The translations under genes were made by a program, and so were the position numbers. A stretch of 63,006 nucleotides of DNA, filler included. It is 6 parts of 6 records of this genome, joined end to end, with 100 filler letters (N's around TTAATTAATTAA, not from the genome) between each part and the next. Parts side by side here need not be neighbours in the genome. Positions count along the whole stretch, not along the records: positions 1 to 26,416 come from SRR20825010_2293; 5 more parts are not named here. One strand, 5' to 3'. Positions within the stretch are counted from its first letter, which is position 1. Every line of letters starts with the position of its first letter. Positions 4,423 through 24,682 of this stretch are shown piece by piece. Below the pieces are notes generated by a model. That model was not told where the DNA came from and made no database searches. It saw only the letters and a list, made by a program, of their open reading frames with translations.

Positions 4423-6654
4423 ATGTTTATAAGGAATAGGTTGTTTTTAATAGTTTTTCTTTTCTCATTCTTGGGGTTTTCTCAAAATGAAACCAAAAAA
4501 GATGCAAAAGTAGGATTGGTTTTAAGCGGAGGGGGCGCAAAAGGCTTAGCGCATATTGGCGCTATAAAGGCAATAGAAGAGGCAGGAGTTAGAGTAGATT
4601 ATATTGGAGGAACAAGTATGGGGGCTATTGTTGGGGCGCTTTATGCGGCTGGATATTCTCCAAAACAATTGGATTCTATTTTTCAAGAAACCGATTTTGA
4701 CGTTTTACTGCAAGATAGAATTCCTCGTTCTGCTATGTCTTTTTATGAGAAAAATAGTTATGAAAAATATGCGGTTGCCTTGCCGTTTAATAAGTTTAGA
4801 TTATCGTTTCCTACTTCTTTGTCCAAAGGGCAAAATTTATACAACCTACTATCTCAACTGTTGTTTAATGTAAATGATGTAGAAGATTTTAACGACCTCT
4901 CTATTCCCTTTTTCTGTATGGCAACAGATGTAGAAACAGGCGATCCAATAAAATTAGATAAAGGATACCTGCCAAGAGCCTTGGCTGCAAGTGCAGCAAT
5001 TCCTTCTTTTTTTGAGCCTGTATTTAATGATGATAGGGTGTTGGTAGATGGGGGAGTTATAAATAACTATCCAGTTGATGAGGTTAAAGAGATGGGAGCC
5101 GATATAATTATTGGGGTAGATGTTCAAGATTCGTTAGCTACTCGAGACGAACTGAGTTCTGCTACCGATGTTTTGGTGCAGATAAATTATTACAATACTA
5201 TTAATGCAATGAAGGAGAAGTTAAAAAAAACGGACCTTCATATAAAGCCTAATATAAAGCCTTACAGTGTTTTGTCTTTTGGTAAAGGAAAAGAAATTAT
5301 AGAAAGTGGGTATGTAGCTGCGGAAGAAAAAAAGGGAACATTGGATAGTATTGCGCAACTTCAGATTAAAAAACCTGTAATGCGTTATCCTGGAAAAATT
5401 GTTGATAGCTTTTTAATTGATAGATTGTCTTTTGAAGGGAATGATAAATTTACACGTGCTTATCTAAAAGGAAAATTAAGATATACAACAGAGGAATACA
5501 CAACTTTTGATAAAATAAATCAAGGGATGAGTAATCTAGCTGCAACCAATAACTTTAATAGTGTGCGCTATGAGTTAAGACCGAATAAAGAGGGATATCA
5601 ACTTACAGTTCCTATAGTAGAAAGGCATACAGACATGTTTTTGAAGTTAGGAGTACATTATGATGGATTATATAAAACCGCTGCATTGCTAAATATTACC
5701 AAAAAACACCTCTTCTTTGATGACGATAATATGTATGTAGATTTTATTGTGGGAGATAATATCCGTTATAATTTAGAATACTATGTGGATAAAGGATTTT
5801 ATTGGAGTTTTGGTTTAAAATCGCGCTATAATTCATTTGATAGGAATGTAAGTTTTGATTTTGTAGAAGAGAAAGCTGGAGATCCACCGCTACCAGAAGT
5901 TAATAAACTAGACGTTAAACTGTCGGATATTACCAATCAGGTATATATGCAAACGGTCTGGAAAGAAGAGTTTACTTTTGGGGTTGGACTTGAGCATAAG
6001 TTTCTAAAAATTGAAACCGAAACGATTGCAGATGATGAAGGAGATGAAATTGTTCTTGAAAATGATAATTATTTTAGTACCTATGGGTTTTTAAAATTTG
6101 ATTCATTAGACAATAAATACTTCCCCTCAAAAGGGTTTTACTTTGACGGCGATTTTCATTTATATTTATTGTCTACTAATATTTCTAATGATTTTAGTGA
6201 GTTTTCAGTAGCTAAAGCTAAAATGGGATTTGCAACACCAATTTATAAAAATCTTTCGTTTGATTTTTTTGCTGAAGGAGGATTTAAATTTGGAGATACA
6301 GAAGTAAACTCCTTTGATTTTATTCTTGGAGGATGGGGTAATGATTTTATAAACAACATAACCCCTTTTTTAGGATATGATTATTTAAGCTTTGGGGGAG
6401 ATAGCTTTGTTAAAGCTACCTTTAATGTTGATTGGGAATTTGTAAAACAAAATCATTTAAACTTTACTGCCAATGTAGCAAATGCTGGAGATAATATTTT
6501 TGAAAGAGGAGAATGGTTTACTCTGCCAACTTATACAGGTTATAGTGTGGGGTATGGCTACGAGTCTTTTATAGGGCCATTACAAGCTAAAGTTAATTGG
6601 TCTCCAGAAACAGATGATACCTTGTTTACAATTAGTATTGGTTTTTGGTTTTAA
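4423..6654 (+). CDS. Patatin-like phospholipase fused to POTRA and Omp85-type barrel (PlpD-like)
   Basis: Signal peptide; GGGAKG, GTSMG, DGG patatin motifs; aromatic-rich C-terminal barrel ending IGFWF. Confidence 0.85.
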   Translation: MFIRNRLFLIVFLFSFLGFSQNETKKDAKVGLVLSGGGAKGLAHIGAIKAIEEAGVRVDYIGGTSMGAIVGALYAAGYSPKQLDSIFQETDFDVLLQDRIPRSAMSFYEKNSYEKYAVALPFNKFRLSFPTSLSKGQNLYNLLSQLLFNVNDVEDFNDLSIPFFCMATDVETGDPIKLDKGYLPRALAASAAIPSFFEPVFNDDRVLVDGGVINNYPVDEVKEMGADIIIGVDVQDSLATRDELSSATDVLVQINYYNTINAMKEKLKKTDLHIKPNIKPYSVLSFGKGKEIIESGYVAAEEKKGTLDSIAQLQIKKPVMRYPGKIVDSFLIDRLSFEGNDKFTRAYLKGKLRYTTEEYTTFDKINQGMSNLAATNNFNSVRYELRPNKEGYQLTVPIVERHTDMFLKLGVHYDGLYKTAALLNITKKHLFFDDDNMYVDFIVGDNIRYNLEYYVDKGFYWSFGLKSRYNSFDRNVSFDFVEEKAGDPPLPEVNKLDVKLSDITNQVYMQTVWKEEFTFGVGLEHKFLKIETETIADDEGDEIVLENDNYFSTYGFLKFDSLDNKYFPSKGFYFDGDFHLYLLSTNISNDFSEFSVAKAKMGFATPIYKNLSFDFFAEGGFKFGDTEVNSFDFILGGWGNDFINNITPFLGYDYLSFGGDSFVKATFNVDWEFVKQNHLNFTANVANAGDNIFERGEWFTLPTYTGYSVGYGYESFIGPLQAKVNWSPETDDTLFTISIGFWF

Positions 6655-8033: not shown

Positions 8034-8057
8034 AAAAATCATCAAATTGAAAAAATT

Positions 8058-9197
8058 ATGTCACAAGATACAACATCATTAAAATTGAATAAAGAAGTTG
8101 AAAATGCAGAAGACTTCTTACCGCTTTTAGGAACAGATTATGTAGAATTATATGTGGGAAATGCTAAGCAGGCAGCGCATTACTATCAATCGGCTTGGGG
8201 TTTTCAACCCATAGCGTACGCTGGATTAGAAACTGGAAGAAAAGATAGTGTTTCCTATGTGCTTCAACAAGATAAAATACGCATTGTATTAACTTCTCCT
8301 TTGCAGGAAGGCGGAGAGGTAAACAGGCATATAGAAAAACATGGCGACGGTGTAAAAGTAGTAGCACTCTGGGTAGACAATGCTACTAAGAGTTATGAAG
8401 AGACTATAAAGCGTGGAGCAAAAAGTTATATGGAGCCAAAAACTATAGAAGATGAAAACGGGGAAGTTGTACTTTCTGGAATTCATACCTATGGAGAAAC
8501 TGTTCATGTTTTTGTAGAGCGCACCAATTATTCTGGATCTTTTATGCCAGGGTACAAAGTGTGGAATCCAAGCTACAAACCTGAGACAGTTGGGTTAAAA
8601 TACATAGACCATATGGTGGGTAATGTTGGTTGGAGTGAAATGAGAAAATGGTGTGAGTTCTACGCTAAGGTTATGGGTTTTGCCCAGTTGGTTTCCTTTG
8701 ATGATAAAGATATCTCTACAGATTATACGGCATTAATGAGTAAAGTGATGAGCAATGGAAATGGACGAATTAAATTTCCAATAAATGAACCAGCTGAAGG
8801 AAAGAAAAAATCTCAGATAGAAGAGTATATAGAGTTTTATAACGGAGCAGGAGTTCAGCACATTGCTTTAGCCACAGATAATATTATTGAAACGGTAAAG
8901 CAATTAAAATTGCGGGGAGTAGAGTTTTTAAAAGTTCCGGAAACCTATTATGATACAGTTTTGGAGCGAGTTGGAAAAATAGATGAAGACTTAGAGCCGC
9001 TTAAAGAGTTAGGGATTTTAATAGATAGAGATGATGAGGGGTATTTATTACAATTGTTTACAAAACCAATTTTGGATAGACCGACAATGTTTTTTGAAAT
9101 AATCCAGAGAAAAGGGGCGAAATCATTTGGGAAAGGCAACTTTAAAGCCTTGTTTGAGGCTATAGAGCGGGAACAAGAAATGCGAGGAACGCTATAA
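8058..9197 (+). CDS. hppD: 4-hydroxyphenylpyruvate dioxygenase
   Basis: IDHMVGN, FPINEP, GVQHIAL, FFEIIQR, FGKGNFKALFEAIE. Confidence 0.97.
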   Translation: MSQDTTSLKLNKEVENAEDFLPLLGTDYVELYVGNAKQAAHYYQSAWGFQPIAYAGLETGRKDSVSYVLQQDKIRIVLTSPLQEGGEVNRHIEKHGDGVKVVALWVDNATKSYEETIKRGAKSYMEPKTIEDENGEVVLSGIHTYGETVHVFVERTNYSGSFMPGYKVWNPSYKPETVGLKYIDHMVGNVGWSEMRKWCEFYAKVMGFAQLVSFDDKDISTDYTALMSKVMSNGNGRIKFPINEPAEGKKKSQIEEYIEFYNGAGVQHIALATDNIIETVKQLKLRGVEFLKVPETYYDTVLERVGKIDEDLEPLKELGILIDRDDEGYLLQLFTKPILDRPTMFFEIIQRKGAKSFGKGNFKALFEAIEREQEMRGTL

Positions 9198-9282
9198 AAC
9201 ACATCTTTTTCTGTTAAATTAATAATTTAAAACTCAACAAATTGATTACTTAATGTTAAAAAAGTTAAACTTATTTATTATG

Positions 9283-9313
9283 CTTGCATAACATGTGTTT
9301 TGTATTAACTTTG
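9283..9313 (+). promoter_or_regulatory. Bacteroidota primary-sigma promoter (-33/-7)
   Basis: CTTG (9283-9286), 19 nt, TAACTTTG (9306-9313); fits TTTG-N19-21-TAnnTTTG with one mismatch. Confidence 0.65.
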
Positions 9314-9316
9314 CGC

Positions 9317-9417
9317 TCGCAAAAGGGGTGGTGCCCTTTGCAAACTTTAAGTAAAGTTTTCATAATTTAAAGTTTTGGTTGGTTAATGAAAAAAACTCGG
9401 CTTCGGTCGAGTTTTTT
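9317..9417 (+). ncRNA. Candidate ~100-nt small RNA
   Basis: Promoter directly upstream, two hairpins (9319-9341, 9342-9359), U-rich single-stranded core (9360-9386), intrinsic terminator; no sense ORF. Confidence 0.55.
9389..9417 (+). terminator. Intrinsic terminator with cUUCGg loop
   Basis: aaaaaactcggc-ttcg-gtcgagtttttt. Confidence 0.85.
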
Positions 9418-9692
9418 GCGTTCAATTTATTTTGACTTTTTTTGGTTGAGTAAAAAAAAGTGCTTTTATTCTTTAATCAAGTATTTTTAAAGAAGCATAG
9501 CAGTGCTATGGTTAGAGAAGTTTATTTATACCTTTTTCTACTTTTGGAATAATAATTGTTAATTATAGCTATATAAGAATTATAATGTAATTGATTTTAT
9601 TATTTTTACACAGAACTCTTTTAAATTTATTGAATTACAATTAATTATCAATAGTTATCAAGGTTTAATGCGAGTTTATTAATACGCTGATT

Positions 9693-10481
9693 ATGAAGAA
9701 GATTATTTTAGCTATACTAGTATTTTGGTCCTCAGCATTTGTAAACCAAAATAGAGTTGTAGAAGAGAATGCATACCAAGCGGGAGAGTGGTTTAAGTTT
9801 AGAATCCATTATGGAATTTTTAATGCTAGTTATGCAACCCTTCAGCTTAAAAATGAAAACCTTAACGGAAAAGAAGTATTTCATGTAATTGGGAAAGGTC
9901 AAACTACAGGTTTAGCAGATTTATTTTTTAAAGTAGACGATAATTACGAAAGTTATTTTGATAAAAACTCAGGGCAACCCTATAAATTTATTAGAAAAAT
10001 TAACGAAGGAGGTCATACCAAAGACCTAGAAATTAATTTTGATTATAATAAAAATAAGGCTGTCTTAAAAGATCATAAGCACGATACTGAAGAAATATTT
10101 CAAATAAATAAGGGAGTGCAAGATCTTATTTCTGCATTTTATTTCCTAAGAGACCGCGTTGATAGAAAAACTGTAAAAGAAGGAGAGGAGTTTGTTTCGG
10201 ATATGCTTTTTGATGATGATGGATTGTTTAAGTTTAAACTCAAGTATTTAGGAAAACAAACCCTTAATACCAAGTTTGGTAAAGTAAGATGCTTAAAATT
10301 CCGCCCTTACGTTCAGTCGGGTCGTATATTTAAAGAAGAAGAAAGTTTGACACTTTGGGTGTCTGACGATGAAAATAAAATGCCCATAAGAGTAAAAGCA
10401 GATATTCTTGTAGGATCAATTAAAGCCGATTTAGAGGCCTTTAAAGGATTAAAGCATCAGTTTAAAATTCAAATGGATTAA
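9693..10481 (+). CDS. DUF3108 family secreted protein
   Basis: Signal peptide; GEWFKFRIHYG, FFKVDD, TKFGKV.C, LWVSDDEN.MP.R motifs. Confidence 0.85.
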   Translation: MKKIILAILVFWSSAFVNQNRVVEENAYQAGEWFKFRIHYGIFNASYATLQLKNENLNGKEVFHVIGKGQTTGLADLFFKVDDNYESYFDKNSGQPYKFIRKINEGGHTKDLEINFDYNKNKAVLKDHKHDTEEIFQINKGVQDLISAFYFLRDRVDRKTVKEGEEFVSDMLFDDDGLFKFKLKYLGKQTLNTKFGKVRCLKFRPYVQSGRIFKEEESLTLWVSDDENKMPIRVKADILVGSIKADLEAFKGLKHQFKIQMD

Positions 10482-11443
10482 TGGCAGTGAAACCCGAAAT
10501 TGAGGCGCAAATAGCATCATTAGAAGAAAAGTATAAAAATTCTGGTCAAGATCTAAGTTCTTATTTAGATGGCCTTCTTTACGAAAAGTATCTTACTTAC
10601 TGGGATTATATTCATTTGGATACACTTTTGAGTTTGCAAATCCCAAGAACGCATTTCCCAGATGAAGAGATATTTATTATGTATCATCAAATTACGGAAT
10701 TGTATTTTAAGCTTATTATTCATGAGCAAAAACAAATTATAGATCATAAGCTTCAAGAAGCAGATTTTTTAATTACCAAAATTGAAAGGATTAATAATTA
10801 CTATAAAATATTAATCAATTCTTTTAATGTAATGATTAATGGAATGGATCGTTCTCAGTTTTTAAAATACCGAATGGCACTCTTGCCTGCAAGTGGTTTT
10901 CAGTCTGCACAATTTAGAATGATAGAAATTTATTCAACGCCATTAAATAATTTATTACATTGTAGTGTTGAGGAACAGTTTTCAGAAAAAAGCACTTTAG
11001 AAGATTTATATGAAAATATTTATTGGAAAAAAGGAGCGGTAGATACCAAAACAAATGAGAAGACGCTCACACTAAAACAGTTTGAATATCGTTATACGCC
11101 TAGATTCATGCGTATAGCAAATGAAGTAAAAGGGACCACCGTATATGAAAAATACTTACATTTGCCAGAAGAAGTTAAAAATAACTCGTTGTTAGTCAAG
11201 GCAATGAGGGAGCTTGATGTAAATGCAAATATAAATTGGAACCTAATGCACATGGGTGCAGCATACAAACATTTAAGTAAAAAAGATCATACCATTGATG
11301 CTACTGGAGGCACCAATTGGAAAGAATATTTACCTCCAAGTTTTCAGAAAATCATCTTTTTTCCTGAACTTTGGAGCGATTCTGAAAAAGCCGACTGGGG
11401 AAAACAGTGGGTGGAGCATATGTTTAACCCTCAAACACATTAA
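10481..11443 (+). CDS. kynA: Tryptophan 2,3-dioxygenase
   Basis: YWDYIHLDTLLSLQ, DEEIFIMYHQITELYFK, ASGFQSAQFR, ATGGT. Confidence 0.88.
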   Translation: MAVKPEIEAQIASLEEKYKNSGQDLSSYLDGLLYEKYLTYWDYIHLDTLLSLQIPRTHFPDEEIFIMYHQITELYFKLIIHEQKQIIDHKLQEADFLITKIERINNYYKILINSFNVMINGMDRSQFLKYRMALLPASGFQSAQFRMIEIYSTPLNNLLHCSVEEQFSEKSTLEDLYENIYWKKGAVDTKTNEKTLTLKQFEYRYTPRFMRIANEVKGTTVYEKYLHLPEEVKNNSLLVKAMRELDVNANINWNLMHMGAAYKHLSKKDHTIDATGGTNWKEYLPPSFQKIIFFPELWSDSEKADWGKQWVEHMFNPQTH

Positions 11444-11449
11444 AACTAA

Positions 11450-12772
11450 ATGCCAAAGAATGTAGCAGCATTTTTACTAATGGCAATGATAGCCTTAGTA
11501 TCGTGCAAAAATGAAAAGAAAGAAGTAGAGGAAGTAAGCGCTGTTGAAACAGAAGAGCTTAAACCTATTGAGTTAAAGGAATTTGGTTATAATCTCAACC
11601 ACTATTTAGTAGTTAGAGATACTATAAAAGCTGGTGATAGCTTTGGAGAAATTCTACAAAGAAACAATATTGGATATCCAGAAATATACAATATTGTTGA
11701 AGGGGTTAAAGATTCGTTTAATATAGCAAGTTTACAAGTAGGGAAACCTTATACCTTACTTTGTGACAAAGAGGATTCTCTGCAAACGCCAAAATGTTTT
11801 ATCTATCAACCAAATAGTATTGATTATGTGGTGGTAGATTTTGCAGATTCTGCAAAAGTTAAAAAAGGTAAAAAAGAAGTTAAACTTGTGGAGAGGGAAG
11901 CTTCTGGAATTATTAATGGATCTTTGTATCAAACACTTCAAGATCAAGGCTTAAGTCCTATTGTGGCCTATAAAATGTCCGATGTTTATGCTTGGACAAT
12001 AGATTTCTTTAGAATCCAAAAAGGGGATAGGTTTAAAGTTATTTTTACTGAAAAATATATAGACGACTCAATTTATGCAGGAATTGATAAAATTCAAGCA
12101 GCGTATTTTGAGCATAAAGGAGAGCCTATTTATTCTTTCCGTTTTGAAACAGATTCTACAAAGCATATTGTAGATTATTTTGATGAAACTGCTAAAAATT
12201 TACGGAGAGCATTTTTAAAAGCTCCAGTTCAGTTTAGTAGAATATCGTCTCGTTATAATTTAAACAGAAGAATTGCATACTACGGAAATAAAATTAGACC
12301 TCATAAAGGAACAGATTTTGCTGCGCCAGTAGGAACTCCAATTCTTTCTACGGCAAATGGAACTGTAGTTGAGTCCACCCGAAGAGGAGGAAATGGAAAT
12401 TATGTAAAAGTAAAACATAACGGAACGTATACCACTCAATACTTACACATGAAGAAAAGAAAAGTAAGAGTTGGAGATTATGTTAAACAAGGAGATATTA
12501 TTGGTTGGGTTGGTATGACTGGAAATACCAGTGGACCACACGTTTGTTATCGTTTTTGGAAAAATGGAAGACAAGTAGATCCATTTAAACAAGATTTACC
12601 AAAAGCAGAGCCTATTGGAGATTCTCTTAAAGTGAAATATTTAGCCCATATTGAGCCAATAAAAGCACAGCTTGATGGGATGCCATTTCCGTCTGATAAG
12701 ACTACCAATGAAGAAGAATATATAACTGAATTAAATCAAAAAAATGCCATTAGCGACCGTAAACCCAACTAA
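11450..12772 (+). CDS. M23 family peptidoglycan DD-metalloendopeptidase (MepM-like lipoprotein)
   Basis: Lipobox LVSC; HKGTD, YLH and GPHV zinc motifs. Confidence 0.9.
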
Positions 12773-23942: not shown

Positions 23943-23995
23943 AATAGGATTTCAAAATTAATGATGTAAAATAGTAACCCTGTAAATAGTAAATT

Positions 23996-24682
23996 ATGAG
24001 CAAAGAGAATTATGAAACTAAGTTTAGCTTATTAAAAAGCATACCATTGGAAGAGGTAAAGAGAATAAACATGCCAGTAGATAGTTATTTGCAAGAGGCG
24101 GAGGACTTATATGTTTGGGCGCAAGAAGATAAAAGAGCGTTGGAAGCTGTGGGCTTGAATTGGATAATTTATATGGAAGATTTACCAGTTCGAGCAGGAG
24201 CACTTAGGCATGCACAATCTCTTTGGGTAAGCGAGCGCTATGGAAGAGAGGAAGCACGCAAGGAATGGGACTTACGGTCGCCAGACGCTTATGCCTTAAG
24301 AGAAGAGTTGTTAAATGCTTTTCGGTTTGCTTTTAGAGAACGAGAAGACCTATTAAGTCGTACCCAAGAGATTAGCACGGGTTTTGGACATGCAGATATG
24401 ATTCAGGATTTAAGTGATCTAGCTTCTTTAGGGAATAAAAACCCTCAGGAATTAGAGAAAATTATGTTTGATATGGAACAGTTAACTACCGCCGAAACTA
24501 CCGCAGCTACTATGGCAGATTTACTTGCTAGAGCTAATGAAACTAGGACAGATAATAGTGCAGAAAAGCTAATTATCCCTGCGGGAAGGGTGACAATGTG
24601 TGCAGGAGATCATAAAAGCTCCTCGGGAGCGGTAACTACCCCGGTAGGAGCTTCTTTTTTTACGGAGGAACGATTTTTCTAA
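23996..24682 (+). CDS. Hypothetical helical protein, C-terminus possibly truncated or read-through
   Basis: 228-aa ORF; last ~37 codons are atypical and run across a terminator-like hairpin. Confidence 0.6.
   Translation: MSKENYETKFSLLKSIPLEEVKRINMPVDSYLQEAEDLYVWAQEDKRALEAVGLNWIIYMEDLPVRAGALRHAQSLWVSERYGREEARKEWDLRSPDAYALREELLNAFRFAFREREDLLSRTQEISTGFGHADMIQDLSDLASLGNKNPQELEKIMFDMEQLTTAETTAATMADLLARANETRTDNSAEKLIIPAGRVTMCAGDHKSSSGAVTTPVGASFFTEERFF
24616..24661 (+). terminator. Terminator-like hairpin inside the 3' end of ORF 23996-24682
   Basis: aagctcct-cggg...cccg-gt-aggagctt followed by cttttttt. Confidence 0.6.

Follow-up and report, generated by a model that had tools for sequence, protein, structure and literature searches.

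In a 63,006-nucleotide stretch of DNA, hereafter the window (six parts of six records joined end to end, with positions 1 to 26,416 coming from SRR20825010_2293), the 495-bp gap between the hppD stop at 9197 and the DUF3108 start at 9693 houses a small RNA (sRNA) unit at 9283-9417. On the sequence evidence, a conserved sRNA gene very probably exists here, and its RNA is best read as the founding member, here, of a new family that is absent from Rfam and appears to be kept across the Flavobacteriaceae. A first-pass annotation of the window had proposed such a self-contained gene, and the promoter, hairpin, core and terminator features were each recovered at the position it had named, with a -7 box of Bacteroidota type, an intrinsic terminator and no Rfam match. 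It had also proposed that the RNA acts in trans by occluding the start codons of many mRNAs. The explanation we favour, at about even odds (roughly 0.5), is that of a trans-acting sRNA of about 100 nt, the product of an independent, regulated gene, which would act by pairing with translation start regions. The anatomy, conservation and structure of the unit, and the likeness of its complement to translation starts, are reported below as observed. The unit is real and far from chance.

Distribution and sequence conservation

A BLAST search of 61 related genomes recovered the full unit in all 10 genomes of the nearest genus, at 90-99% identity, together with matches of 80-85% identity in five other genera of the family. 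A covariance model (R1), built on hairpin 1, hairpin 2 and the tail, matched 49 of 151 Flavobacteriaceae genomes (about one per genus) at E<=0.01, 35 of these falling below 1e-10. With a second covariance model (R2) and an order-wide sample, 12 of the 15 members of the Flavobacteriaceae were matched, and in 17 other families only 1 of 136 genomes gave a match, a weak one (E 0.005, in a genome 67% complete); the RNA was therefore not found outside the Flavobacteriaceae among the families searched. Scanning 185,579 species genomes for the exact 28-29-nt core returned at least 120 contig stretches. Among the approximately 80 matches listed, all named carriers of the exact core were Flavobacteriaceae, including Arenibacter, Maribacter, Flagellimonas/Muricauda/Allomuricauda, Cellulophaga, Zobellia, Kordia, Robiginitalea, Croceitalea, Eudoraea, Sediminicola, Galbibacter, Joostella, Capnocytophaga and others. 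Cultivable models are found among the carriers (Zobellia, Maribacter, Cellulophaga and Capnocytophaga).

Approximately 45 bases are invariant in 35 distinct aligned sequences, namely GGGUGGU, ACUUUAAGUA and UUUUUCAUAAUUUAAAGU(U)UUGGUUGGUUA. The sRNA occurs in two main variants, of which the window has the rarer, and a divergent form stands at the equivalent genomic place in all nine sampled species of the large genus g171, as well as in genome G020. The novelty of the RNA held up against Rfam 15, in which the whole window gave no match at gathering scores; the gap (9150-9750) yielded only weak, sub-threshold matches, the best being istR (21.5 bits vs 45), a match driven by the terminator. No published description of the sRNA was found in a literature search that included text strings of the core and did not extend to the supplements on the Rfp RNAs of Flavobacterium psychrophilum.

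Structure of the RNA

The plus strand at 9316-9418 folds with a minimum free energy (MFE) of -31 kcal/mol (z -4.1), a stability equalled by none of 200 shuffled sequences, and the folds of three lineages show an identical four-part architecture (z -5.0 to -6.4) in which the tail is unpaired. Hairpin 1 is a well supported, covarying 5' hairpin: in 35 distinct sequences, 99.5% of the cells are paired and four of the six pairs show compensatory changes, and in 37 more diverse sequences 95% are paired, five of the six pairs compensate and the covariation score was reached by none of 500 shuffles.

Hairpin 2 had to be redrawn. The helix first proposed (AAACUUU/AAAGUUU, 9342-9359) is feasible in the window, but its C-G pair is gone in 22 of the 35 distinct sequences and two pairs turn to G-U in the commoner variant. 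A conserved alternative, in which ACUUUAAGU (9344-9352) pairs with AUUUAAAGU (9365-9373), is both the minimum-energy fold of the window RNA and the alifold consensus; it is 100% paired on alignment A3 and 96.6% on A4, percentages that alone prove little because the helix is mostly invariant. One-sided changes in its 5' arm retain pairing by wobble (C to U opposite G, A to G opposite U, G to A opposite U), and in genus g171 the hairpin is rebuilt as UAUAAAUU-UUCAU-AAUUUAUA, with both arms altered. It follows from the conserved hairpin 2 that the anti-start CAU always lies in the loop and that the G/U tail with UUGGUUGGUUA is always free, while the stretch complementary to positions -1 to -9 of a start is sequestered in the stem. 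The core had been described as single-stranded; this stands for the loop (9353-9364) and the tail (9376-9389), but not for 9365-9375, about one third of the core, which pairs with 9342-9352. Within the tail, the element GGUUGGUUA is invariant in 38 aligned matches (35 distinct sequences).

Promoter, upstream repeats and terminator

A TAnnTTT[G/A] box lies 49-57 nt 5' of the core in 134 of 136 distinct loci. The -7 consensus of the housekeeping sigma factor in Bacteroidota is TAnnTTTG, and the window box TAACTTTG fits this criterion; judging from its position, transcription would start near 9318-9320. A TTG at -33 distance is present in the window, but in just 39 of 134 loci, and in most loci this position is taken by GTTAA repeats. 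In 124 of 136 distinct loci, two to four of these repeats fall within the 75 nt that lead up to the promoter, at fixed offsets from the -7 box (-55/-54, -43/-42 and -33/-32). They are likely to form an activator site, in the layout of an activator-dependent promoter. Such an activator-type promoter, together with the fixed place beside tyrosine and tryptophan catabolic genes, points to a defined physiological signal. At the other end of the unit, a terminator-like hairpin followed by a T-run was found in all 136 distinct loci, with stem sequences that vary between genera.

The motif GTTAAAG-N3-GTTAAA marks the sRNA promoter in five of five genomes and occurs at three other sites. No regulon emerged from it, these three extra sites being intracoding, without a clear downstream gene, and upstream of a 154-aa open reading frame (ORF), respectively.

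Likeness of the complement to translation starts

Genome-wide tests were run on the first 1.2 Mb of the approximately 4.5-Mb nearest genome (G001), one genome in all, where 1000 ORFs were called by a first-ATG rule so crude that some called starts must be wrong. In the resulting start profile, A makes up 56-59% from -13 to -11, 51% at -10, 48% at -3 and 56% at +4, and U makes up 40% at -1, in agreement with the Kozak-like A at -3 described in Flavobacterium johnsoniae (PMC6847099). When scored on a matrix of these start sites that leaves the ATG out, the reverse complement of the core obtained 6.86 bits, corresponding to the 89th percentile of the 1000 predicted starts; this value was reached by 0.4% of 19,045 ATGs and by 0.02% of 5000 self-shuffles.

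Duplex energies pointed in the same direction. With RNAduplex, the RNA (9345-9392) paired with 766 start regions at a mean of -12.87 kcal/mol, 29 of them at <= -20, compared with -12.49 kcal/mol (9 at <= -20) for coding controls and -11.36 kcal/mol (8 at <= -20) for antisense controls, while 22 shuffled RNAs gave a mean of -11.16 +/- 0.53 kcal/mol against the start regions; the RNA shuffles in this and the following loop and tail tests (22-25 of them) kept mononucleotide content only. A k-mer signal was located at 9355-9363, ATGAAAA being found in 133 and AATTATGA in 31 of the 868 start regions, and another, based on small numbers, at 9377-9381, where 7-mers of the tail complement occurred in 10-11 of 868 start regions vs 1-4 in each of three controls. 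For the loop alone, sites at <= -8 kcal/mol numbered 61 in start regions, 29 in coding, 13 in antisense and 19 in upstream sequences, with a mean of 12.2 for shuffles. The proposal that the core is antisense to translation starts therefore survives in part: its complement does score as a good start, but only the CAU loop is clearly start-specific, and the statistical support for the loop shows resemblance, not function. The 8-mer AAATTATG, cited earlier in the same connection, does stand before hppD (8053-8060) and before ORF 23996 (23991-23998); it is, however, a common one, with 9 occurrences in the window vs 4.7 +/- 2.1 expected.

A high-scoring start context on the minus strand could also mean that the conserved element belongs to that strand, either as a start site with a micro-ORF or as the relic of a gene start, or that the region is a mere hppD terminator. 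An 8-codon frame, MKNQYLKL, is indeed found in 68 of 136 loci, and the terminator is flanked by an A-run and a T-run. We regard these possibilities as highly improbable. Read from the ATG at 9363, the minus-strand frame runs to 30 aa in the window, compared with 5-33 aa elsewhere, mostly 7-8 aa, in the 136 distinct loci, and it shifts because of indels while the bases stay conserved, which disposes of a translated 30-aa ORF as the reason for conservation. Since the terminator precedes this ATG on the minus strand, minus-strand transcripts coming from the right would stop before reaching it, and both the conserved -7 box and the covarying hairpin 1 are oriented for the plus strand. As for hppD termination, HppD is present upstream of the RNA in 77 of 150 loci, and in the other half or so the unit is unchanged. 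The plus-strand ATG at 9386 is missing from the commoner variant, and a conserved ORF was found on neither strand of the unit.

Candidate targets

Matches obtained by BLAST with the core only were gene starts on the opposite strand. In two congeners, complementarity to the sRNA reaches 93% across 40 nt in the leader and first codons of a secreted CBM96-fn3-polysaccharide-lyase gene (minus-strand gene start at 1540-1600 of L031 and 1510-1570 of L032); this gene is preceded by a SusD-like gene fragment and by a 401-aa ORF, each of them assigned by eye. The lyase start region and the sRNA core look as though they had a common origin. A second lead is a GFO/IDH/MocA oxidoreductase with a twin-arginine translocation (Tat) signal, for which pairing was predicted at -22.0, -18.6, -22.8, -20.4 and -17.8 in five genomes of four genera. 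Another high-scoring G001 gene was dropped, its pairing not being conserved (-14.5 and -16.2), and so were HppD, HmgA and M23, whose start regions scored at or below background.

As a separate observation, three paralogous small proteins of G001 (genes at approximately 472311 and 51283 on the minus strand and 220428 on the plus strand) have in common the N-terminus M(N/S/K)T(L/I)(R/K)N.VQLIGN.G and resemble, by eye, single-stranded-DNA-binding protein; the similar leader of their genes, AAAttTTT.AATTATGA..ACTTTA, is among the high scorers for anchored identity with the sRNA complement.

Proposed mode of action

We infer the following sequence of events. The regulated promoter would give rise to a discrete RNA of about 100 nt ending at the intrinsic terminator, and the loop of hairpin 2 would expose the anti-start-codon UUUUCAUA. 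The loop could then pair with AUG-AAA(A/C), while the tail and the 3' arm would pair with C/A-rich and A-rich leaders, and such pairing would keep the 30S subunit from binding to a restricted set of mRNAs devoid of a Shine-Dalgarno sequence, mainly encoding exported or periplasmic proteins. If true, start-site pairing of this kind would show how an sRNA can recognise initiation regions without a Shine-Dalgarno anchor. The occlusion of many mRNA starts foreseen in the first-pass annotation was not supported, as neither a verified target nor a discrete transcript emerged, and a global occlusion of start codons appears unlikely. Equally hard to credit, and rather doubtful in our judgement, is a dedicated anti-start-site RNA, whose loop UUUUCAUA and adjoining arm would exactly mirror the Kozak-like consensus of the phylum (A from -13 to -10 and at -3, U at -1, AUG AAA) and which would serve, in bacteria without Shine-Dalgarno pairing, as a broad, dose-dependent brake on initiation for a large mRNA class, especially at Lys-rich signal-peptide starts, jointly with sibling RNAs that have UUGGUUGGUUA under other promoters, one of them sigma-54-like.

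A number of observations weigh against the favoured start-site pairing. The preference for start regions is confined to the loop: at <= -12 kcal/mol, the tail counted 29 sites in start regions, 38 in coding, 8 in antisense and 21 in upstream sequences, with a mean of 13.5 for shuffles. The exact complement of the tail, the 11-mer AACCAACCAAA, is not over-represented in five genomes (71 vs 50 for a control pattern), and of 65 sites examined 8 were in called start regions, the proteins behind them belonging to no common family. No near-perfect target was found in the 1.2 Mb of G001, where an anchored identity scan gave 30/48 as its best match and no single convincing target. Signal-peptide-like proteins made up 40% of the best matches vs 28%, a marginal excess (p=0.04). 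Ten GFO/IDH/MocA paralogues also scored above background (mean approximately -15.9), and because of these high scores the oxidoreductase lead may mirror a leader composition common to the whole family. The approximately 45 invariant bases exceed what a seed usually needs, which hints at a further partner, and the very tight linkage to the DUF3108 operon also fits a role in cis. Contigs from four RNA libraries (pieces 9249-9400, 9182-9328 and 9405-9595, plus a 10.9-kb contig of a relative) are of low depth and cross the promoter or the end of hppD; they are silent on transcript ends, strand and level, and the fact that no discrete transcript was seen in them carries no verdict either way.

The tail in other transcripts

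A further partner is at the centre of the explanation in which the sRNA acts mainly through a protein or other macromolecule, by sequestration or scaffolding, with the GUGGU loop and the GGUUGGUUA tail as binding sites and an incidental likeness to translation starts. In its support, the approximately 45 consecutive bases are invariant across genera in which HppD is merely 64-86% identical, GGU-type motifs occur in both unpaired regions, and the tail has no start-site preference by energy. Moreover, UUUGGUUGGUU stands directly 5' of an intrinsic terminator, on the sense strand, in at least 10 of 65 other occurrences of the 11-mer in five genomes, as a shared binding module would. We consider this explanation unlikely, as the loop enrichment and the matrix score would then be coincidence, and the RNA is not known to bind a protein. 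The box is also not general to terminators: when tried as a general terminator feature, GGTTGG was found upstream of 4 of 363 predicted terminators vs 1.7 expected. The recurrence of the box suggests a small set of transcripts with a common seed or protein-binding module.

Individual cases of UUUGGUUGGUU(A/G)UU before terminators were seen at L284 (G005), L301, L302 and L297 (G011), L305 (G034) and L193 (G001), several of them just after a stop codon and hence in 3' untranslated regions; L301 and L305 are apparently orthologous. One of the units with the box before a terminator is a second candidate sRNA, noticed at L335 (G001:C1:3250532-3250592, minus strand), L336 (G005) and L337 (G037). It has a sigma-54-type box, TGGCACG-N4-TTGA, and, 20-70 nt farther on, a U-run, GGUUGGUUAGUUGA and an intrinsic terminator; UUUCAUA is also present in two of the genomes, and the tail module is common to this candidate and the RNA studied here.

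Linkage to the DUF3108 operon

The sRNA is tightly linked to the DUF3108-tryptophan dioxygenase operon. In 136 of 150 loci, DUF3108 follows the RNA in the same orientation, within 600 nt in 135 of them and at a median of 161 nt from the end of the core, and 9 of the remaining 14 loci are too short for the linkage to be judged. The order of promoter, structured RNA, terminator and operon is that of a classic attenuator, and the RNA could accordingly be thought of as a cis-acting leader of the operon encoding DUF3108, tryptophan 2,3-dioxygenase (TDO) and the M23 peptidase, with signal-dependent stop or readthrough at the terminator. The start regions of DUF3108 and TDO also lie slightly above background in predicted pairing with the RNA (means of -15.4 and -15.7 vs -12.9, about 0.8 standard deviations better).

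Several features of the loci make this arrangement in cis unlikely. The left arms of the terminator vary between genera and the core is invariant, so that a conserved antiterminator pairing is impossible (no formal search for alternative structures was run). The spacing between the RNA and DUF3108 ranges from 76 nt to more than 5 kb, and there is no leader peptide, the plus-strand ATG mentioned above being absent from the commoner variant. Conserved promoter-like blocks lie between the terminator and DUF3108; TTTGGAAYAAATTTTGTTTAAG and TTTTAGTAAYTTTAC recur there in other genera as putative promoter elements. Two tandem copies of the sRNA gene, approximately 280-390 bp apart, were found in Kordia (L076, L091, L134), Cerina (L125), Sediminicola (L100) and G079 (L061), and each copy has its own GTTAA repeats, -7 box and terminator. 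Lastly, both Capnocytophaga and Kordia retain the RNA away from the DUF3108 operon. In Kordia the tandem copies come after hmgA-hppD and a distant TDO-like gene (38% identity); their distance from DUF3108 in L076 is approximately 5 kb.

Relation to known small RNAs

Flavobacteriaceae play a major part in breaking down algal polysaccharides in the sea, and fish and oral pathogens also belong to the family. To our knowledge, they have no Hfq, their mRNAs are devoid of Shine-Dalgarno sequences, and RNA-based regulation in this family is almost unexplored; being single-copy, easily recognised and nearly invariant across many genera, the RNA described here gives a practical starting point.

In mechanism, the nearest described systems would be FopS and GibS of Bacteroides thetaiotaomicron. 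These RNAs, with RbpB, are reported to bind beside the start codon and to block translation initiation on mRNAs for envelope and polysaccharide-utilisation proteins of the susC type, by means of an unpaired seed and with a Rho-independent terminator, in a phylum that has no Hfq-type chaperones and, for the most part, no Shine-Dalgarno sequences (PMC11697453). There is no relation in sequence: GibS, on the minus strand, reached 17.1 bits (E 8.6) vs the 115 needed for gathering, and the FopS model was absent from the Rfam matches to 9150-9750 even at E<=10. FopS is present in 12-14 copies per genome and has its seed at the 5' end, whereas the RNA studied here is single-copy or in two tandem copies and has two 5' hairpins, with candidate seeds in a loop and in the 3' tail. 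It also differs from both FopS and GibS in belonging to the Flavobacteriaceae and in having a fixed genomic neighbour.

GcvB of enterobacteria uses a G/U-rich unpaired region to pair with C/A-rich elements in or just upstream of the ribosome-binding sites of many mRNAs; it is highly conserved, encoded beside genes of amino-acid metabolism, Hfq-dependent and proteobacterial. Rfam gave no GcvB match here, and the G/U tail showed no start-specific pairing by energy. In sRNAs of the RsaE/RoxS type, from Firmicutes, conserved C-rich seeds complement the Shine-Dalgarno sequence. The likeness lies in a seed that complements a generic initiation signal, which in the present RNA would be a CAU loop and U-rich arm facing AUG and an A-rich leader, but signal, phylum and fold all differ.

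Closer in phylogeny, the Rfp sRNAs (Rfp1-89) of Flavobacterium psychrophilum were detected experimentally and are described as structured, without Rfam hits and in some cases conserved beyond the species, with Rfp18 affecting the mRNAs of secreted proteases (PMC9723704). The main text makes no mention of hppD, homogentisate or DUF3108 (PMC9723704). One of the 85 Rfp RNAs may be a homologue of the divergent g171 form.

Features of the locus

The coordinates of the unit and of its neighbours are given in Table 1.

Table 1. Features of the sRNA unit and its surroundings (positions in the window)
Feature	Positions	Strand	Details
hppD	8058-9197	+	Pfam
GTTAA(A) direct repeats	9255-9270	+	copies 9255-9259 and 9264-9268; upstream of sRNA promoter
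Promoter	9284-9313	+	TTG 9284-9286, 19-nt spacer, -7 box TAACTTTG 9306-9313
Hairpin 1	9319-9341	+	GCAAAAGGG / CCCUUUGC; loop GUGGU near-invariant
Hairpin 2	9342-9375	+	5' arm 9342-9352, loop AAAGUUUUCAUA 9353-9364, 3' arm 9365-9375
Core	9357-9386	+	reverse complement matches that quoted in the first-pass annotation
Anti-start CAU in hairpin 2 loop	9361-9363	+	
Unpaired G/U-rich tail	9376-9389	+	UGGUUGGUUAAUGA; candidate second seed or protein site
Intrinsic terminator	9390-9417	+	A-run, CUCGGC-UUCG-GUCGAG, U6 (stem-loop and U6 at 9396-9417)
Promoter-like blocks of DUF3108 operon	9543-9562; 9595-9609	+	TTTGGAATAATAATTGTTAA; TTTTATTATTTTTAC; 3' of sRNA terminator
Operon DUF3108 - tryptophan 2,3-dioxygenase - M23 peptidase	9693-12772	+	Pfam
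DUF3108 gene	9693-10481	+	Pfam

Within the conserved block before DUF3108, TTTGGAAYAAnnTTTGTTTAAG, the GG-N10-GT spacing is like that of a -24/-12 promoter, and an imperfect inverted repeat, ACAATAC/GTAATTGT, flanks it. The -7-like TTTTAGTAAYTTTAC comes after this block, upstream of DUF3108, and the blocks are also present in L066, L067, L074, L077, L082, L105 and L132. On the other side of the sRNA gene, just upstream of hmgA-hppD, the ORF at 4423-6654 consists of a patatin-like phospholipase domain fused to a barrel of the Omp85 superfamily (Pfam).

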